In this document: positions 11,148-22,207 of the stretch, piece by piece
How the letters are laid out: every line of letters starts with the position of its first letter
Position numbering within the stretch: the first letter of the stretch is position 1
Virus record (IMG/VR): IMGVR_UViG_3300037455_000816
DNA length: 64,000 nt
Strand: one strand, 5' to 3'
DNA from: a virus
Taxonomy: Duplodnaviria > Heunggongvirae > Uroviricota > Caudoviricetes
Translations under genes and position numbers: made by a program
The notes under the pieces: generated by a model
Databases searched by the model: none
What the model was told of the DNA's origin: nothing
What the model saw: only the letters and a program-made list of their open reading frames with translations

Positions 11148-11420
11148 ATGAAAGCTGTATTCAACATCAAATTAACCGTAGAAGGCCGCGATGTCGTCAC
11201 CAAGGTGGGTGTCGCCGAGGGCCTGGATGATATGGAAATTACTTTGTTGCAGAATATCCTTCGTTCTATTGCTGACACCCAGAAGAGGGTGAAGCAGCAG
11301 ATTGACCGCTTCTACGGCGCTCCCGAAGGCACGGTAGATAACTCTGAGACGGCTGATTTAGAGCCTAAAGAAGAAGCTGAAGCAGGAGCAGTAGCACCCA
11401 AGACCGAAGAACAGGAGTAA
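11148..11420 (+). CDS. small acidic hypothetical protein (first gene of the large operon)
   Basis: 90-aa ORF about 80 nt downstream of the predicted promoter. Confidence 0.5.
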   Translation: MKAVFNIKLTVEGRDVVTKVGVAEGLDDMEITLLQNILRSIADTQKRVKQQIDRFYGAPEGTVDNSETADLEPKEEAEAGAVAPKTEEQE

Positions 11421-11440
11421 TCCATCCAACCATCCGAAGA

Positions 11441-12649
11441 ATGAGAAAAGCTAATTTTCGAATTATATCACTAACACTTACGTCTTTGTTTGTGTGTGCC
11501 AGCGCCAGCGCACAGGAGGCTGAAAAGCTTTCTGTGTCGCTGGTTCCCGACGCGCAGTACGCCGTGGCTACCAACAAGTTCAAGGATAACTGGGAGGTTT
11601 CCTTCGGACTGGGCGCAACCACGTTCTACGGCAACCAGGAGGCGAACATGGATCTGTCACGAGGACTGTTCCAAGGATTCCGCACCTCCGTGGGCGTAAG
11701 TATGTCAGTGGCCAAGTGGTTCTCACCCGACATTGCCATGCGTCTGAAGCTCAACGGCTTCTCAGGCAAAAGCATCCAGTCGGCAGAATCCGATTCAAAC
11801 AGCGTCAAGTATGCCTCGCTGCAGGCCGACGCTCTGTTTAATATACATAATATGGTAAAGGGTTACGACCAGGCCCGCTTCTGGAACTTCATTCCATACG
11901 CAGGCGTAGGCTTTGCTCGTAACTTCACCCATTGCCGTAACACGCTCACCTTTCATGTCGGACTCCTGAACACCTTCCGCATCACGGAACGCCTGAAAGG
12001 CTACTGTGACCTGGGCTATAACCTCGCAGGAGGGGAGTTCGACAATATGGGTGTGCGCACCAACAAGATCTTCACCAACCGCGATACGTGGATAGGGCTG
12101 GAGGTAGGTGTCACCTACGAGCTGGGAAAGAACTCTTGGAAGCACATGGTTGACCTCGATGACGTGGAGGTGGTGCCCTGGCAAGAGACTCAGCGCGAGA
12201 TGAAACGCCTGCTTCGCTCCAACAAGGGCCTGAAGGAAAAGGTCAACTATCTGGAGAACCAGCCCAAGCCGGAACCGGTGAACACCGTTACCACCGTCAC
12301 ACGTATTCCCGACGTTTCCATCTTCTTCGAGATGGGTATCGCCGACCTGAATCATCGCGGACAGCTGGAGAATATCAAGAAGCTGGTGAAGATCGCACAG
12401 GAAGAGAAACGTATCATCACCGTCACAGGCTTCGCAGACAGCCAGACAGGTAATGAGCTGCTGAATGAGAAGCTGGCAGCACGTCGTGCTGACACCATCG
12501 TCAAGGAACTGCTTGAGATGGGTGTGGATTCTCATCAGATAAGGATTGTAAACGGCGGCGGCGTGAACACGCTCGACATCGTGCCTGCCAACCGTCGCGT
12601 CGTGGTTTCCCTGGGTGGCCAGTACGCTGACCCGCAGGTCTCTGAATAG
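11441..12649 (+). CDS. OmpA-family outer-membrane protein (N-terminal beta-barrel + C-terminal OmpA peptidoglycan-binding domain)
   Basis: Signal peptide; alternating amphipathic beta-strand pattern; C-terminal OmpA-like motif ITVTGFADSQTGNELLNEKLAARRADTIVKELLEMGV. Confidence 0.8.
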   Translation: MRKANFRIISLTLTSLFVCASASAQEAEKLSVSLVPDAQYAVATNKFKDNWEVSFGLGATTFYGNQEANMDLSRGLFQGFRTSVGVSMSVAKWFSPDIAMRLKLNGFSGKSIQSAESDSNSVKYASLQADALFNIHNMVKGYDQARFWNFIPYAGVGFARNFTHCRNTLTFHVGLLNTFRITERLKGYCDLGYNLAGGEFDNMGVRTNKIFTNRDTWIGLEVGVTYELGKNSWKHMVDLDDVEVVPWQETQREMKRLLRSNKGLKEKVNYLENQPKPEPVNTVTTVTRIPDVSIFFEMGIADLNHRGQLENIKKLVKIAQEEKRIITVTGFADSQTGNELLNEKLAARRADTIVKELLEMGVDSHQIRIVNGGGVNTLDIVPANRRVVVSLGGQYADPQVSE

Positions 12650-12720
12650 AATGTTAGTCAAGTATTTTTTTCATATAATGAATTGGTTAAAAGATTGTTG
12701 AAAATCGAAAGAACTCTCTC

Positions 12721-12755
12721 GGCGGGGACATCCGTGAGGCCCTTCCCGCCTTTTT
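12721..12755 (+). terminator. intrinsic terminator/attenuator between the OmpA-family gene and the PorK-like gene
   Basis: GGCGGGGA-loop-TTCCCGCC stem followed by TTTTT. Confidence 0.5.
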
Positions 12756-19935: not shown

Positions 19936-19939
19936 AGAT

Positions 19940-20929
19940 ATGCGCCCTATGATAAAGAAGATATTGCACGGCACGAAAGCCGTTATGATAGCAGCCCTGG
20001 GGCTGATGCTCACGGCCTGCGAATATAAGGATCTCGGTGATTTCGGTCGCGGGAAAATCAAGAAGATTCCCGTCACCCTGCACTTCGACTGGCAACAGGT
20101 GGATAGCATACCCAACTCCATGCGTGTGGTATTCTATCCTGATGACAAGACGAACTACGCCCAAGGCTATACGTTCTTCGACGTGCTGAACTGCGACACC
20201 ACGATCCAGTTGCCTGCCGGTGGCTACAGCCTTACGGCATGGAACAATGACTGCGAACACGTCATCGTGTCACACTTCTCAAAGCAGGAGGCCACCTATG
20301 CCACAACGGGAAACTACTCGCCCCACGGCAATGTGAACATCCCGAAGGTGCTGGATTCCCTGTACCATGACCAGAAGGTTCTCGACTATCCTGACTATAT
20401 GGTACACGCCAACCTGTTCAACTTCCTCATCGAGGAGAACAAGCCGAATCAGGTTATCACACTCACACCAGACTCAATGGTGGTCACGGTGGAGGTGAAA
20501 CTTCACGGCATCAAGGGTCTGGAGTGGTGTCAGAACATTCGCGGAGCCATCAACAATGTCGCTGGCAAACGCTATATCGCCTTCGACAACCTCACGGAGG
20601 ATAAGGTGGCGATCATGTTCGACGCAGAGCCGGTACAGCAGGATAGTATGGTGGTGGCAAAGTTCTGGGTGTTCGGCATAGAGCCGACCGACCTCTCGCA
20701 CCTCGACCACAAGCTGGTGATGTTCTTCTGGATCACGGGAAACCAGGTATTCATACCGATAGATGTCACGGACATTATCGCCAACGCACGGAAAGATGAT
20801 ACCTACGTGTTGATCGAAACGCCTGACCTCGACATTGATCTCAGTAAGTACGTCCGACAAGGCGAAACGGGTATCATCGTAGATGCCGAAGACTGGGAGG
20901 AAACAGAAGAGATCACCCTCAGTTTCTAA
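19940..20929 (+). CDS. Mfa2/FimB-like pilus anchor lipoprotein (putative)
   Basis: Lipobox LTACEY; about 330 aa; sits between a DUF3575 gene and a fimbrillin gene as in type V pilus operons. Confidence 0.5.
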   Translation: MRPMIKKILHGTKAVMIAALGLMLTACEYKDLGDFGRGKIKKIPVTLHFDWQQVDSIPNSMRVVFYPDDKTNYAQGYTFFDVLNCDTTIQLPAGGYSLTAWNNDCEHVIVSHFSKQEATYATTGNYSPHGNVNIPKVLDSLYHDQKVLDYPDYMVHANLFNFLIEENKPNQVITLTPDSMVVTVEVKLHGIKGLEWCQNIRGAINNVAGKRYIAFDNLTEDKVAIMFDAEPVQQDSMVVAKFWVFGIEPTDLSHLDHKLVMFFWITGNQVFIPIDVTDIIANARKDDTYVLIETPDLDIDLSKYVRQGETGIIVDAEDWEETEEITLSF

Positions 20930-20989
20930 AAAGAATGAGTTTTACTCAATTTATAATTCACTTTAGTATTAATTTAAATTTTTACAATT

Positions 20990-22207
20990 ATGAAGACAAA
21001 GTTTATTGTAATGGCTGCTATGGCAGCAATGTTCTCAATGGGCTTCACAGCCTGCAGTAACAACGATGATGAGCTGGCCAATCAGCAGATTGCCGAGGCT
21101 CGTGGTATTGGCTTCAATGTTGCCGGTGAAGGTAATGTCGTAACTCGTGGTTACGCTCTCAATGCCGCCAATGTAGGCGCTACTCTCCCCAATTTCCAGA
21201 CTTGGGCTTATGATGCTGTCTCTGGTGGTCAATACATGGGTGTTTCCGCAACCGTTGGTCGTACCGTCAACAACGCTGACGCTAACTCTGATGGTGTTTA
21301 CGAGAACTCTTGGAGCTATACCCCGGTTCAGTTCTGGCCAGTGAACGCCCTGAACTTCGTAGCACTCGCACCCAACGCTCCTAACGGCGTGACTGGCAAC
21401 ACTGTTGCACAGGATGGTACGTCTAAGGACATCACTCTGACAACTGCCGTAACTCTGTCAACGACTGTTTCTGATCAGGATGATATCATGTTCGCAGAGG
21501 GTGATGGACTGACCGCCGCATCAAGTACAGGTAATGTACCCTACACCTTCAAGCACGCTCTGTCTCAGATTGTGTTCAAGGGTAAACTTCCTACCAGCGG
21601 TGCTGTGACCAAGGTTACTATTGCTGAGATCACTCTCGGTAATATCGGTAAGACCGGTAATCTGGTTTTCGACAACAACGGTACCTTCTTCGAAGGTGCA
21701 TCACAGATCACTGCTTCTACTCCTTCTAAGTTCACTTTGAGTGCAGCTGAACTCGAAGAGGATGAGTGGGACGTAAACGGTGTAGGTGCAAACGCTACCG
21801 CAGGTACAGCATTTGACCTGACTGTCAGCAACAATTCTACTTTGAAGAACGCTTGGATGCTTCTGCCTCAGACCGCTGCTGCATGGGTTAATAGCACGGA
21901 TGCAGAACTGAAAGCCGGTGGTCTTTGGGATGCTTCTGCAAATGCTGGTGCAGGTGCAAACGACGAACCTGCTACTGGTGCTTATCTGAAGATCCGCGCA
22001 CAGCTGGAGAAGGACGGCGTGGTAATCCTCGGCAGCGCAGAGTCTGACGCTATCTACATTCCTCTGAATGTAAGCTGGGATCGCTCTAAGAAGTACATTT
22101 ACACCATCGAGTTCAATGGTACTTCTGCTCTGACTCCTATCACTTTCAGTGTAGCAGCTCAGGATTGGACTGACGCTGATCCTCAGCCTGGTCAGATCGA
22201 TATGTAA
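20990..22207 (+). CDS. fimbrillin-family (type V pilin, Mfa1/FimA-like) lipoprotein
   Basis: Lipobox GFTACSNN; about 400 aa; last gene of the DUF3575/Mfa2-like/pilin triad; paralogous to the N-terminal half of the 4350-6602 protein. Confidence 0.7.
   Translation: MKTKFIVMAAMAAMFSMGFTACSNNDDELANQQIAEARGIGFNVAGEGNVVTRGYALNAANVGATLPNFQTWAYDAVSGGQYMGVSATVGRTVNNADANSDGVYENSWSYTPVQFWPVNALNFVALAPNAPNGVTGNTVAQDGTSKDITLTTAVTLSTTVSDQDDIMFAEGDGLTAASSTGNVPYTFKHALSQIVFKGKLPTSGAVTKVTIAEITLGNIGKTGNLVFDNNGTFFEGASQITASTPSKFTLSAAELEEDEWDVNGVGANATAGTAFDLTVSNNSTLKNAWMLLPQTAAAWVNSTDAELKAGGLWDASANAGAGANDEPATGAYLKIRAQLEKDGVVILGSAESDAIYIPLNVSWDRSKKYIYTIEFNGTSALTPITFSVAAQDWTDADPQPGQIDM

Follow-up and report, generated by a model that had tools for sequence, protein, structure and literature searches.

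The porKLMN genes of Porphyromonas gingivalis and the gldKLMN genes of Flavobacterium are generally regarded as a chromosomal component within the type IX secretion system, usually present in a single copy and arranged in the order porP-porK-porL-porM-porN. Type V pili are encoded elsewhere (for example, by the Mfa1 and FimA operons of P. gingivalis and the DUF3575-anchor-fimbrillin operons of Bacteroides), and how their subunits reach the outer membrane and are put together there is still unclear. The subject of this analysis is a 64-kb stretch of DNA from an IMG/VR virus record (IMGVR_UViG_3300037455_000816, 64,000 nucleotides; hereafter 'the window', in which open reading frames (ORFs) of at least 50 aa were scanned) that carries both: a diverged and structurally modified copy of the porKLMN set, located on mobile DNA, in one gene string with pilus genes.

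Several described systems share individual features with this locus. In P. gingivalis, the type IX system exports Mfa5, and the protease that matures the pilins through gingipain processing belongs to the type IX cargo (PMC8313007). The conjugative plasmid pMMCAT of gut Bacteroidales encodes Mfa-like fimbriae together with an exopolysaccharide; the fimbriae cause aggregation and biofilm formation, and their stalk gene is a hotspot of variation (10.1101/2024.04.29.590671). The plasmid pcBtQ1 of Cardinium cBtQ1 carries a gldK-L-M-N operon in the absence of sprA, sprE and sprT; it is described as the cell's sole copy, moved from the chromosome (PMC4007549). The element in the window resembles pMMCAT in being a Bacteroidales mobile element with type V fimbriae and a hypervariable stalk gene, but the pMMCAT paper reports no type IX or Gld genes, and its hosts are human gut Bacteroides and Phocaeicola rather than rumen Prevotella-like bacteria. 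It resembles pcBtQ1 in placing a porKLMN/gldKLMN set on an extrachromosomal or mobile replicon that lacks translocon genes, whereas the Cardinium plasmid has neither a barrel fusion nor pilus genes. The thin type IVb pilus of R64, and the type VI secretion loci found on integrative and conjugative elements of Bacteroidales, are accessory envelope machines on transfer elements, and offer a parallel for a second envelope machine that mediates contact or interaction between cells, although the machine families are unrelated. Precedents exist for plasmid-borne gldKLMN genes and for type V fimbriae carried by a conjugative plasmid of Bacteroidales; a barrel-fused PorK lineage, and a conserved mobile module of PorKLMN, DUF3575, anchor and fimbrillin, were not found described. 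Searches of an incomplete library turned up no paper in which PorKLMN/GldKLMN paralogues are connected to DUF3575, DUF5119 or fimbrillin genes, or to mobile elements of Bacteroidales.

The genes in question (Table 1) form a string of 12 co-directional ORFs that runs from a Bacteroidetes-type promoter to a strong terminator. An earlier description drawn from the letters of the window alone (the 'sequence-only reading') had correctly identified this + strand string, but had counted sixteen genes; its uniform spacing of 1-60 nt applies to most of the gaps, with the exception of 134 nt ahead of the PorK gene. Its start for PorN, at 18304, is replaced by the methionine that precedes the signal peptide. 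Seven of the genes constitute a core: barrel-fused PorK, PorL, PorM, PorN, a DUF3575 protein, an Mfa2-like DUF5119 anchor and a lipoprotein fimbrillin. The pilus genes begin 12 nt after PorN. The elements to which the module belongs are best read as conjugative or mobilizable, with uncultured Prevotella-like Bacteroidales of the rumen as their hosts. The favored account of its function, which could well be right and could about equally well be wrong, is that of an accessory module whose private PorLM/PorKN apparatus supports the biogenesis of the element's own adhesive pilus, likely via outer-membrane parts of the host's type IX system, and is deployed together with the element's transfer regulon.

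Table 1. Genes of the Por-pilus cassette, its regulatory sites and related features of the window.
Feature	Position	Strand	Basis or remark
Small acidic protein, 90 aa	11148..11420	+	Optional first gene; without signal peptide; no Pfam/NCBIfam match
OmpA-family outer-membrane protein	11441..12649	+	Optional; PF00691 E 4e-11
PorK/GldK paralogue, 675 aa	12784..14811	+	TIGR03525, PF03781 and PDB PorK matches
PorL/GldL paralogue, 213 aa	14813..15454	+	TIGR03513, GldL_N and PDB PorL match
PorM/GldM paralogue, 519 aa	15470..17029	+	TIGR03517, four GldM Pfam domains, PDB PorM match
144-aa lipoprotein with two internal repeats	17034..17468	+	Variable slot; ORF and comparison with near-identical elements
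103-aa lipoprotein	17472..17783	+	Kept in element family; position varies
179-aa secreted protein	17799..18338	+	No family (Pfam, NCBIfam); some lineages only
PorN/GldN paralogue, 305 aa	18355..19272	+	Start = Met before signal peptide; 305 aa also in relatives
DUF3575 small outer-membrane protein	19285..19935	+	PF12099 E 8e-32
DUF5119 lipoprotein, Mfa2-like anchor class	19940..20929	+	PF17145
Fimbrillin (Mfa_like_1) lipoprotein, candidate stalk pilin	20990..22207	+	PF13149
Fimbrillin-LRR protein, 735 aa from MRKLLL	4350..6557	-	Mfa_like_1 and LRR_5; type I signal peptide
25-nt motif GGGTCTTGAATTTGTTAAATCAAGA, operon copy	10998..11022	+	Operator-like; 7-bp inverted arms, 10-nt spacer; just upstream of operon promoter
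25-nt motif, divergent copy serving topoisomerase III	10802-10826	-	Exact match
25-nt motif, upstream of unit without assigned role	33401-33425	-	Exact match
25-nt motif, unit upstream of MobV relaxase gene (49019)	45827-45851	+	Exact match
25-nt motif, unit from second OmpA protein (OmpA2) to coupling protein	54184-54208	+	Exact match
Bacteroidetes-type operon promoter (TTTG ... TAtcTTTG)	11039..11070	+	Pattern match and five-unit alignment
GC-rich stem-loop, inner CCGUGAGG (GNRA-type) loop, U5 tract	12721..12756	+	Terminator-like leader element, 28-63 nt before PorK start codon
Strong intrinsic terminator, operon end	22242..22275	+	12-13-bp stem and T run

The four Por/Gld assignments proposed earlier all hold when judged against the curated NCBIfam thresholds (350 bits for TIGR03525, 68 for TIGR03513, 180 for TIGR03517 and 86 for TIGR03523), and the Pfam matches are concordant. 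PorK scores 414 bits, carries the FGE-sulfatase domain PF03781, and matches the P. gingivalis PorK structures 9mzu and 9ots with E 8e-145. PorL scores 88 bits, with a match to GldL_N in Pfam and, for its two-helix membrane domain, to PorL in 7sat (E 2e-18); the TIGR03513 match is confined to the N-terminal part, and the cytoplasmic part is short and diverged. PorM, at 542 bits, contains all four GldM Pfam domains and matches PorM in 7cmg over its full length (E 2e-144), with a transmembrane helix followed by four periplasmic domains. PorN scores 156 bits and matches PF19841 (GldN) with E 5e-38. Mutagenesis of GldLM has shown GldL Y13, E49 and two loop residues (a Lys and a His), together with GldM R9 and Y17, to be important to the motor (10.1101/2020.05.11.089193). 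The equivalents are kept in PorL (Tyr30, Lys44, His47 and Glu62, by alignment with 7sat) and in PorM (Arg11 and Tyr19 within RQKMINLMY, by alignment with 7cmg), and the element's PorL/PorM motor therefore looks functional. As a separate observation from tblastn comparisons, the identity of PorL does not track that of PorK in loci L019, L041 and L046 (for example, PorK 58% with PorL 84%, or PorK 80% with PorL 50%), which suggests either recombination between cassettes or the existence of two PorL types.

The most distinctive departure from the canonical set lies in PorK. Canonical PorK homologues are lipoproteins of ~480 aa with a ...SCFGG lipobox, whereas PorK in the window lacks an N-terminal lipoprotein signal and has a barrel in its place: a type I signal peptide is followed by an 8-stranded OmpA-like barrel (~45-219), a disordered linker (~225-262) and the PorK FGE-like domain. 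An AlphaFold2 model built from 12 family members places eight strands within residues 45-219 (strand pLDDT, the model's confidence score, 80-92) ahead of the disordered linker, and Foldseek matches the modeled barrel to those of OmpA, NspA and OmpW, so that the barrel fusion claimed previously is both borne out and assigned to a fold. Among the best 120 database matches, 94 homologue clusters share the ~260 extra residues and type I signal peptide ahead of the PorK domain. Neighbor-joining analysis of the PorK domain groups the 20 canonical lipoproteins in one clade, which a single branch separates from the 94 fused proteins. Together with the loss of porP, the barrel fusion marks a specialized PorK lineage and, on the structural model, the barrel would tie PorK to the outer membrane in place of the lipid anchor.

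Cross-linking in P. gingivalis connects PorK, through its N-terminal part, with the small barrel protein PG0189 (PMC4980022). The barrel fusion may, purely by analogy, be a covalent counterpart of that noncovalent contact. As with PorG (PG0189), a small OmpA/OmpW-like barrel on the PorK/N ring, an outer-membrane barrel of the same fold class lies by the N-terminal part of PorK, and the canonical rumen locus has a similar OMP_b-brl gene after porN. Homology to PorG was considered and rejected: the hhalign probability is 1% against both the OMP_b-brl protein of the canonical locus and the 205-aa barrel of sister elements. The fused barrel has no detectable similarity to the canonical OMP_b-brl, while PorK residues 20-224 are 42% identical to the N-terminus of the element's own OmpA-family protein; the barrel is therefore a PorG analogue and not a shown homologue. 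The OmpA-family protein itself (11441..12649) consists of an N-terminal barrel paralogous to that of PorK and a C-terminal peptidoglycan-binding OmpA domain.

The possibility that the cassette is simply the host's ordinary chromosomal porKLMN locus, lying beside a mobile element, was raised at the outset as an outcome that would refute the proposal. It gains something from the high similarity of PorK and PorM to their canonical counterparts (identity between the window set and the canonical rumen set is 65% for PorK, 39% for PorL, 64% for PorM and 44% for PorN). However, the canonical rumen-type locus has a different layout, consisting of cobA, DUF2795, PorP/SprF, PorK (a 483-aa lipoprotein, 64-65% identical in the shared domain), PorL (256 aa), PorM (521 aa), PorN (343 aa) and OMP_b-brl (210 aa) next to ribosomal protein genes, and the same cobA-DUF2795-porP arrangement is found upstream of porK in Parabacteroides. 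The cassette in the window shares with it the equivalog matches, the K-L-M-N order, the four domains of PorM and the PorL/PorM membrane residues, but it has no porP, carries a barrel where the PorK lipobox should be, has a shorter cytoplasmic part in PorL, separates porM from porN by as many as three small, variable genes, and is attached to pilus genes at a mobile-element location. Since both layout and sequence differ, the cassette is a distinct paralogous lineage; it is also flanked on both sides by mobile-element genes with the same promoter motif, and travels with topoisomerase III in most lineages. The ordinary-locus explanation is thus largely refuted and extremely improbable, and the noncanonical layout asserted in the sequence-only reading stands.

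The pilus genes are likewise supported as family members, the OmpA, DUF3575, Mfa2-like (DUF5119) and fimbrillin calls all being recovered by Pfam. The DUF3575 protein has a type I signal peptide and ~190 mature residues. The lipobox Cys27 of the DUF5119 protein is invariant among its homologues, some of which match both PF17145 and PF08842 (Mfa2). Its AlphaFold2 model (pLDDT 84) retrieves, in Foldseek, 5cag (E 1e-18) and 3gf8 (described as DUF1812), both pilin-fold 'putative adhesins' of Bacteroides, as well as the P. gingivalis anchor Mfa2 (5nfi, E 8e-9), and the protein is, on this modeled structure, a lipoprotein with the type V pilin fold and an Mfa2-like anchor. Type V pilins have been described as lipoproteins matured at an Arg (PMC8313007). 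In an alignment of 13 diverse fimbrillin homologues, Cys22 and Thr52-Arg53-Gly54 are invariant, a pattern that fits a lipoprotein pilin of that kind. As in known type V operons, a lipoprotein stalk with an Arg after the lipobox is accompanied by an Mfa2-like anchor and DUF3575; unlike them, these genes stand in one string with a private PorKLMN set.

The term 'complete', which had been applied to this pilus module, is too strong: barrel, anchor and stalk are present, but the operon contains no gene for a tip subunit. A candidate tip or accessory adhesin is the fimbrillin-LRR protein encoded outside the operon, whose pilin domain is 46% identical to the operon fimbrillin and whose gene is conserved beside the cassette in close relatives; many relatives carry a second fimbrillin downstream. 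A type IX C-terminal domain attributed to this protein in the sequence-only reading is not supported by profile searches at relaxed thresholds, and only a short '...GIYIKDGKKVIIGL' tail resembles, by eye, the ends of such domains. The candidate tip thus differs from those of known type V pilus operons both in being encoded elsewhere and in its lack of a detectable type IX signal.

The linkage between the Por and pilus genes is maintained over considerable evolutionary distance. An almost identical PorK is found on nine metagenome contigs (one from project PRJEB21624), the longer of which show the same neighbors; versions of the cassette with 61% identity occur in two uncultured Prevotella metagenome-assembled genomes (MAGs); the single scan behind these two used window-specific peptide patterns and is a poor guide to how the cassette is distributed among isolates. 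CAMUYR010000005.1 and CAMAHD010000039.1 are records from MAGs with the cassette. Searching metagenomes with the barrel region added 33 further loci. When the analysis was restricted to loci that extend 8.9 kb or more past the PorK start (n=24; tblastn), all seven core genes were found in the same order and on the same strand in 24 of 24 metagenome and MAG loci, which represent at least 12 PorK identity classes at 49-99%. Identity to the protein in the window spans 51-99% for PorM, 52-100% for DUF3575, 35-99% for PorN, 38-99% for DUF5119 and 26-97% for the fimbrillin; DUF3575, which always follows PorN, is therefore about as conserved as PorM.

The variability of the fimbrillin is of a different kind. 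Elements whose other core genes are 96-100% identical (the window against L001/L002/L004 (from 18390), L003 and L016) have fimbrillins that are 58%, 83% or 97% identical, which indicates cassette-like replacement or diversifying selection at a single gene; fimbrillins of different elements are mostly 27-37% identical to each other (~50-55% in L035 and L037), and the pilin domain of the fimbrillin-LRR protein, at 46%, is nearer to the operon fimbrillin than most of these are to one another. Conserved DUF3575 and PorM proteins combined with a variable stalk pilin fit a conserved machine with a variable surface tip. It is this combination, together with the strict and deep Por-pilus linkage, that argues, at the level of comparative genomics, for a functional coupling of the PorKLMN set with DUF3575, anchor and stalk pilin.

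The same observations bear on another explanation, namely that the extra PorKLMN is a spare or boosting type IX core that plugs into the host system for general secretion, to the benefit of host fitness, with the pilus genes as unrelated cargo. PorK and PorM are close enough to the canonical rumen set (~64-65% identical) for interaction with host parts, and the mosaic PorL types suggest exchange between cassettes. However, unrelated cargo would hardly be expected to remain linked in 24 of 24 loci across deep divergence, or to begin 12 nt after PorN in the same string, and the barrel fusion and the loss of porP identify a specialized lineage; this explanation is accordingly rather unlikely.

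The proposal that the machine is self-contained did not survive. No Pfam or NCBIfam match to Sov/SprA, PorV, PorU, PorT, PorW or PorP was found among the scanned ORFs of the window, and none of these genes appears in the gene lists of related loci; with neither translocon or attachment genes nor detectable cargo, the machine cannot be regarded as self-contained. On the favored account of a private apparatus serving the element's own pilus, a second and diverged proton-driven PorL/PorM motor would act with a periplasmic PorK/PorN ring that the PorK barrel ties to the outer membrane, and this motor and ring would supply envelope-spanning energy or scaffolding for the export and assembly of a minimal type V pilus set (the DUF3575 barrel, the Mfa2-like anchor and the hypervariable lipoprotein stalk pilin, with the fimbrillin-LRR adhesin nearby). 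Because the element carries no translocon, its apparatus would probably use type IX outer-membrane parts of the host. Once the transfer regulon is switched on, the pilus would act as an adhesin that promotes cell-cell contact or aggregation, a likely role by analogy with the pMMCAT fimbriae; stabilization of mating pairs, or adhesion more generally, is a plausible function.

The missing translocon can also be taken at face value. In that case DUF3575 and the anchor pilin would be the direct targets of the barrel-anchored PorKN ring and PorLM, which would thereby extrude, rotate or move the pilus without the host translocon, in parallel to the movement of the SprB adhesin by GldKLMN, and would constitute a new appendage machine. 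The absence of any detected Sov, PorV or PorU gene or C-terminal-domain cargo in the element would be accounted for directly, as would the intact motor residues, the motor-like conservation of DUF3575 and its constant position after PorN, and the relationship of the PorK barrel to the element's OmpA barrels. There is, however, no known precedent for such a machine, and a DUF3575 monomer of ~190 mature residues seems too small to form a conduit for pilins. Moreover, the named hosts are all Prevotella MAGs, a genus that has type IX secretion, so that independence from the host is not required. A translocon-independent pilus is consequently a possibility of a clearly lower order than the favored account. 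Stated in its boldest form, and held as tentatively, the idea would be that mobile elements took over an ion motor of the PorLM class as the direct power source of a type V pilus, with PorKN-DUF3575 as a translocon-independent export or actuation machine deployed alongside transfer genes for mating contacts; if true, this would add a third output of the GldLM/PorLM motor class to the two known ones, type IX secretion and gliding, and would offer an initial way into the question of how type V pilins cross the outer membrane.

The mobile-element context was confirmed in its main components. The window encodes a MobV relaxase (158 bits against a cut-off of 100), a coupling protein that matches the Bacteroides MobC model with 474 bits (below its cut-off of 900) and also T4SS-DNA_transf, TrwB and TraG-D_C, and a topoisomerase III that lies divergently upstream of the cassette here and in most related loci; the cassette sits among these genes, and the same motif drives its flanking units. 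Within the window there are also SSB, C5 methylase, RadC and polyvalent-protein domains. The coupling protein stands in a string (54296-63585, and likewise L099:12276-22268) with a second barrel-OmpA protein, a 713-aa protein, a bPH-domain protein and two signal-peptide proteins; the 713-aa neighbor has two internal repeats and a C-terminal hydrophobic segment, and lacks a Walker A motif. The sequence beyond the 3' end was read for 10 kb on a 261-kb scaffold that carries a 99% coupling-protein homologue, where a DnaN-like sliding clamp, an M23/glucosaminidase protein, DUF4099 and ArdC are encoded. No integrase or recombinase family was found among the scanned ORFs, the boundaries of the element lying outside the window, and exact-protein look-ups at both window ends led to short contigs only, so that the ends were not reached.

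This context allows a further interpretation, in which the PorKLMN/pilus set substitutes for, or belongs to, the mating-pair formation system of the element family. No Bacteroidetes-type type IV channel genes were found in the 64 kb or the additional 10 kb, despite the relaxase and coupling protein; the promoter motif is common to the transfer units; and in L011/L038, the most distant lineage, a Rep3-like gene, a resolvase and TraE/TraF-like genes (DUF4134/DUF4133; VirB2/VirB3-like) lie directly upstream of the cassette. Yet no VirB4-like ATPase was found, nothing connects type IX parts with DNA transport, and channel genes may be encoded beyond the available sequence, which stops short of the element's ends. 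Topoisomerase III, MobV and the OmpA2 unit with its neighbors also make up a related backbone, L063, that has no cassette, and the cassette is therefore accessory rather than a core transfer machine. A direct part in DNA transfer is, on balance, improbable.

What does connect the cassette to transfer is its promoter. The sequence-only reading had noted a promoter joined to a conserved palindromic motif, and this is supported: the exact 25-nt motif occurs five times in the window against 0 expected, and an alignment of the five motif-linked units places every copy directly 5' of a -33/-7 promoter of the form TTTG / TAnnTTTG (the pattern TTTGN17-23TANNTTTG has 5 matches in the window, with 0.83 expected). 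The exact motif is also present in relatives, down to elements with 67% PorK identity. The five motif-promoter sites define, on this sequence evidence, a five-unit regulon of the element, within which the cassette would be expressed together with the transfer genes.

The string also contains a leader element ahead of PorK. The hairpin reported earlier at 12721-12755 exists and is followed by a U tract; its stability alone is unexceptional (fold z -0.76 for 12721-12751), but at least 12 lineages, some of their loci without the OmpA gene, have a counterpart 37-96 nt ahead of the PorK start that combines a GC stem, an inner CCG-N-GAGG loop and a U tract, with compensatory changes in 9 of 9 consensus pairs. 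No Rfam family matches this hairpin or anything else in 10500-23000. Since a promoter would hardly seem to fit between the hairpin and PorK, transcription of PorK must read through the hairpin; a reasonable reading is that it acts as an attenuator or partial terminator. The terminator at the end of the operon, with 13 stem pairs in the scan and 12 in the fold, is exceptionally stable (fold z -4.2; 0 of 200 shuffles as stable).

A number of points weigh against the account of a private apparatus that builds the element's pilus. Classical type V pilins are lipoproteins for which no direct need of PorKLMN is known. No type IX C-terminal-domain cargo (PF18962, TIGR04183) was detected in the window, and the fimbrillin-LRR protein in particular gave no match to Por_Secre_tail (PF18962) to E 0.1 in Pfam, or to TIGR04183 to E 1 in NCBIfam. 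The canonical type IX set on which the apparatus would draw is known from related rumen bacteria, and not from this host genome. Co-transcription of the operon is deduced from gene spacing alone, and the conserved terminator-like hairpin ahead of PorK may point to different expression of the first genes and the motor genes. The L063 backbone indicates that the cassette is dispensable to the element; and, as no type IV secretion channel genes were found among the ORFs of the window (Pfam) or in the 10 kb past its 3' end in the 99%-identical element, the conjugative status of the element is unproven.

The functional account is built on comparative genomics. If the coupling is functional, the cassette would represent a genetically compact system in which to study the delivery of type V subunits and their assembly at the outer membrane, would indicate that a PorLM motor can be specialized for a private substrate, and would add a new contact organelle to the mobile elements of rumen Bacteroidales, where gene exchange shapes fiber-degrading communities.

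Outside the core, the content of the cassette is flexible. The three small genes reported between PorM and PorN are indeed present but vary between elements and do not belong to the core; the OmpA and 90-aa genes are optional as well. The first slot after PorM is swappable, in that the near-identical L001, L002 and L004 carry a 205-aa OMP_b-brl (PF13505/PF13568) gene where 139- or 144-aa products are encoded here, and the 205-aa protein (L001:14251-14868) and the lipoprotein at 17034-17468 share a signal peptide only. The gene for the 103-aa lipoprotein is sometimes found in relatives on the opposite strand near topoisomerase III. Upstream of PorK, homologues of the 90-aa acidic protein (34-98% identity) are present in many loci but missing from others, and gene maps reveal that the separate OmpA gene ahead of PorK is missing in L009, L010, L011/L038 and several more (in such loci the tblastn match to OmpA1 is the barrel of PorK itself).

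Several further observations were made in passing. The longest ORF of topoisomerase III (8671-10872, - strand, 733 aa) overruns its own promoter motif, and the likely start, as in relatives, is at 10722 (MIVCIAEKPS..., 683 aa). A perfect Bacteroidetes promoter consensus at 17336-17367 (+), inside the gene for the 144-aa lipoprotein, may be an internal promoter serving the genes downstream, or a chance match. A 311-aa protein encoded at 30076-31011 (+) combines an excisionase-type HTH_17 domain with an RNA polymerase alpha C-terminal-like domain (PF03118, E 3e-17), and could, as an idea only, regulate via the 25-nt motif. At 6703-8112 (-), and among small ORFs in 1-4400 and 22700-30000, Kinase-PolyVal, LPD28, SSB, C5 methylase, RadC and YAcAr/DprA-like genes are interspersed with many small uncharacterized genes; the polyvalent-protein, SSB, methylase and RadC region looks like the 'leading region' of a transfer element, or anti-defense cargo.

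Relatives of the OmpA barrel beside pilus operons on human-gut contigs were also considered, but one group appeared, from its gene sizes, to be of the aerotolerance (Bat) type, and the idea was dropped. In an annotated plasmid collection, where the Cardinium plasmid also appeared, the one PorK match of note was 'plasmid 4' of Parabacteroides distasonis (L097; NZ_OY725749.1, 169 kb), with the canonical layout; this record carries cobA-DUF2795-porP-porKLMN among housekeeping-type genes, and looks like chromosomal sequence labeled as a plasmid. Finally, in L011/L012/L038 (~5800-10000; 19553-21847) the genes that come after the cassette encode a second fimbrillin and a 764-aa protein of no family, and the context looks plasmid-like.

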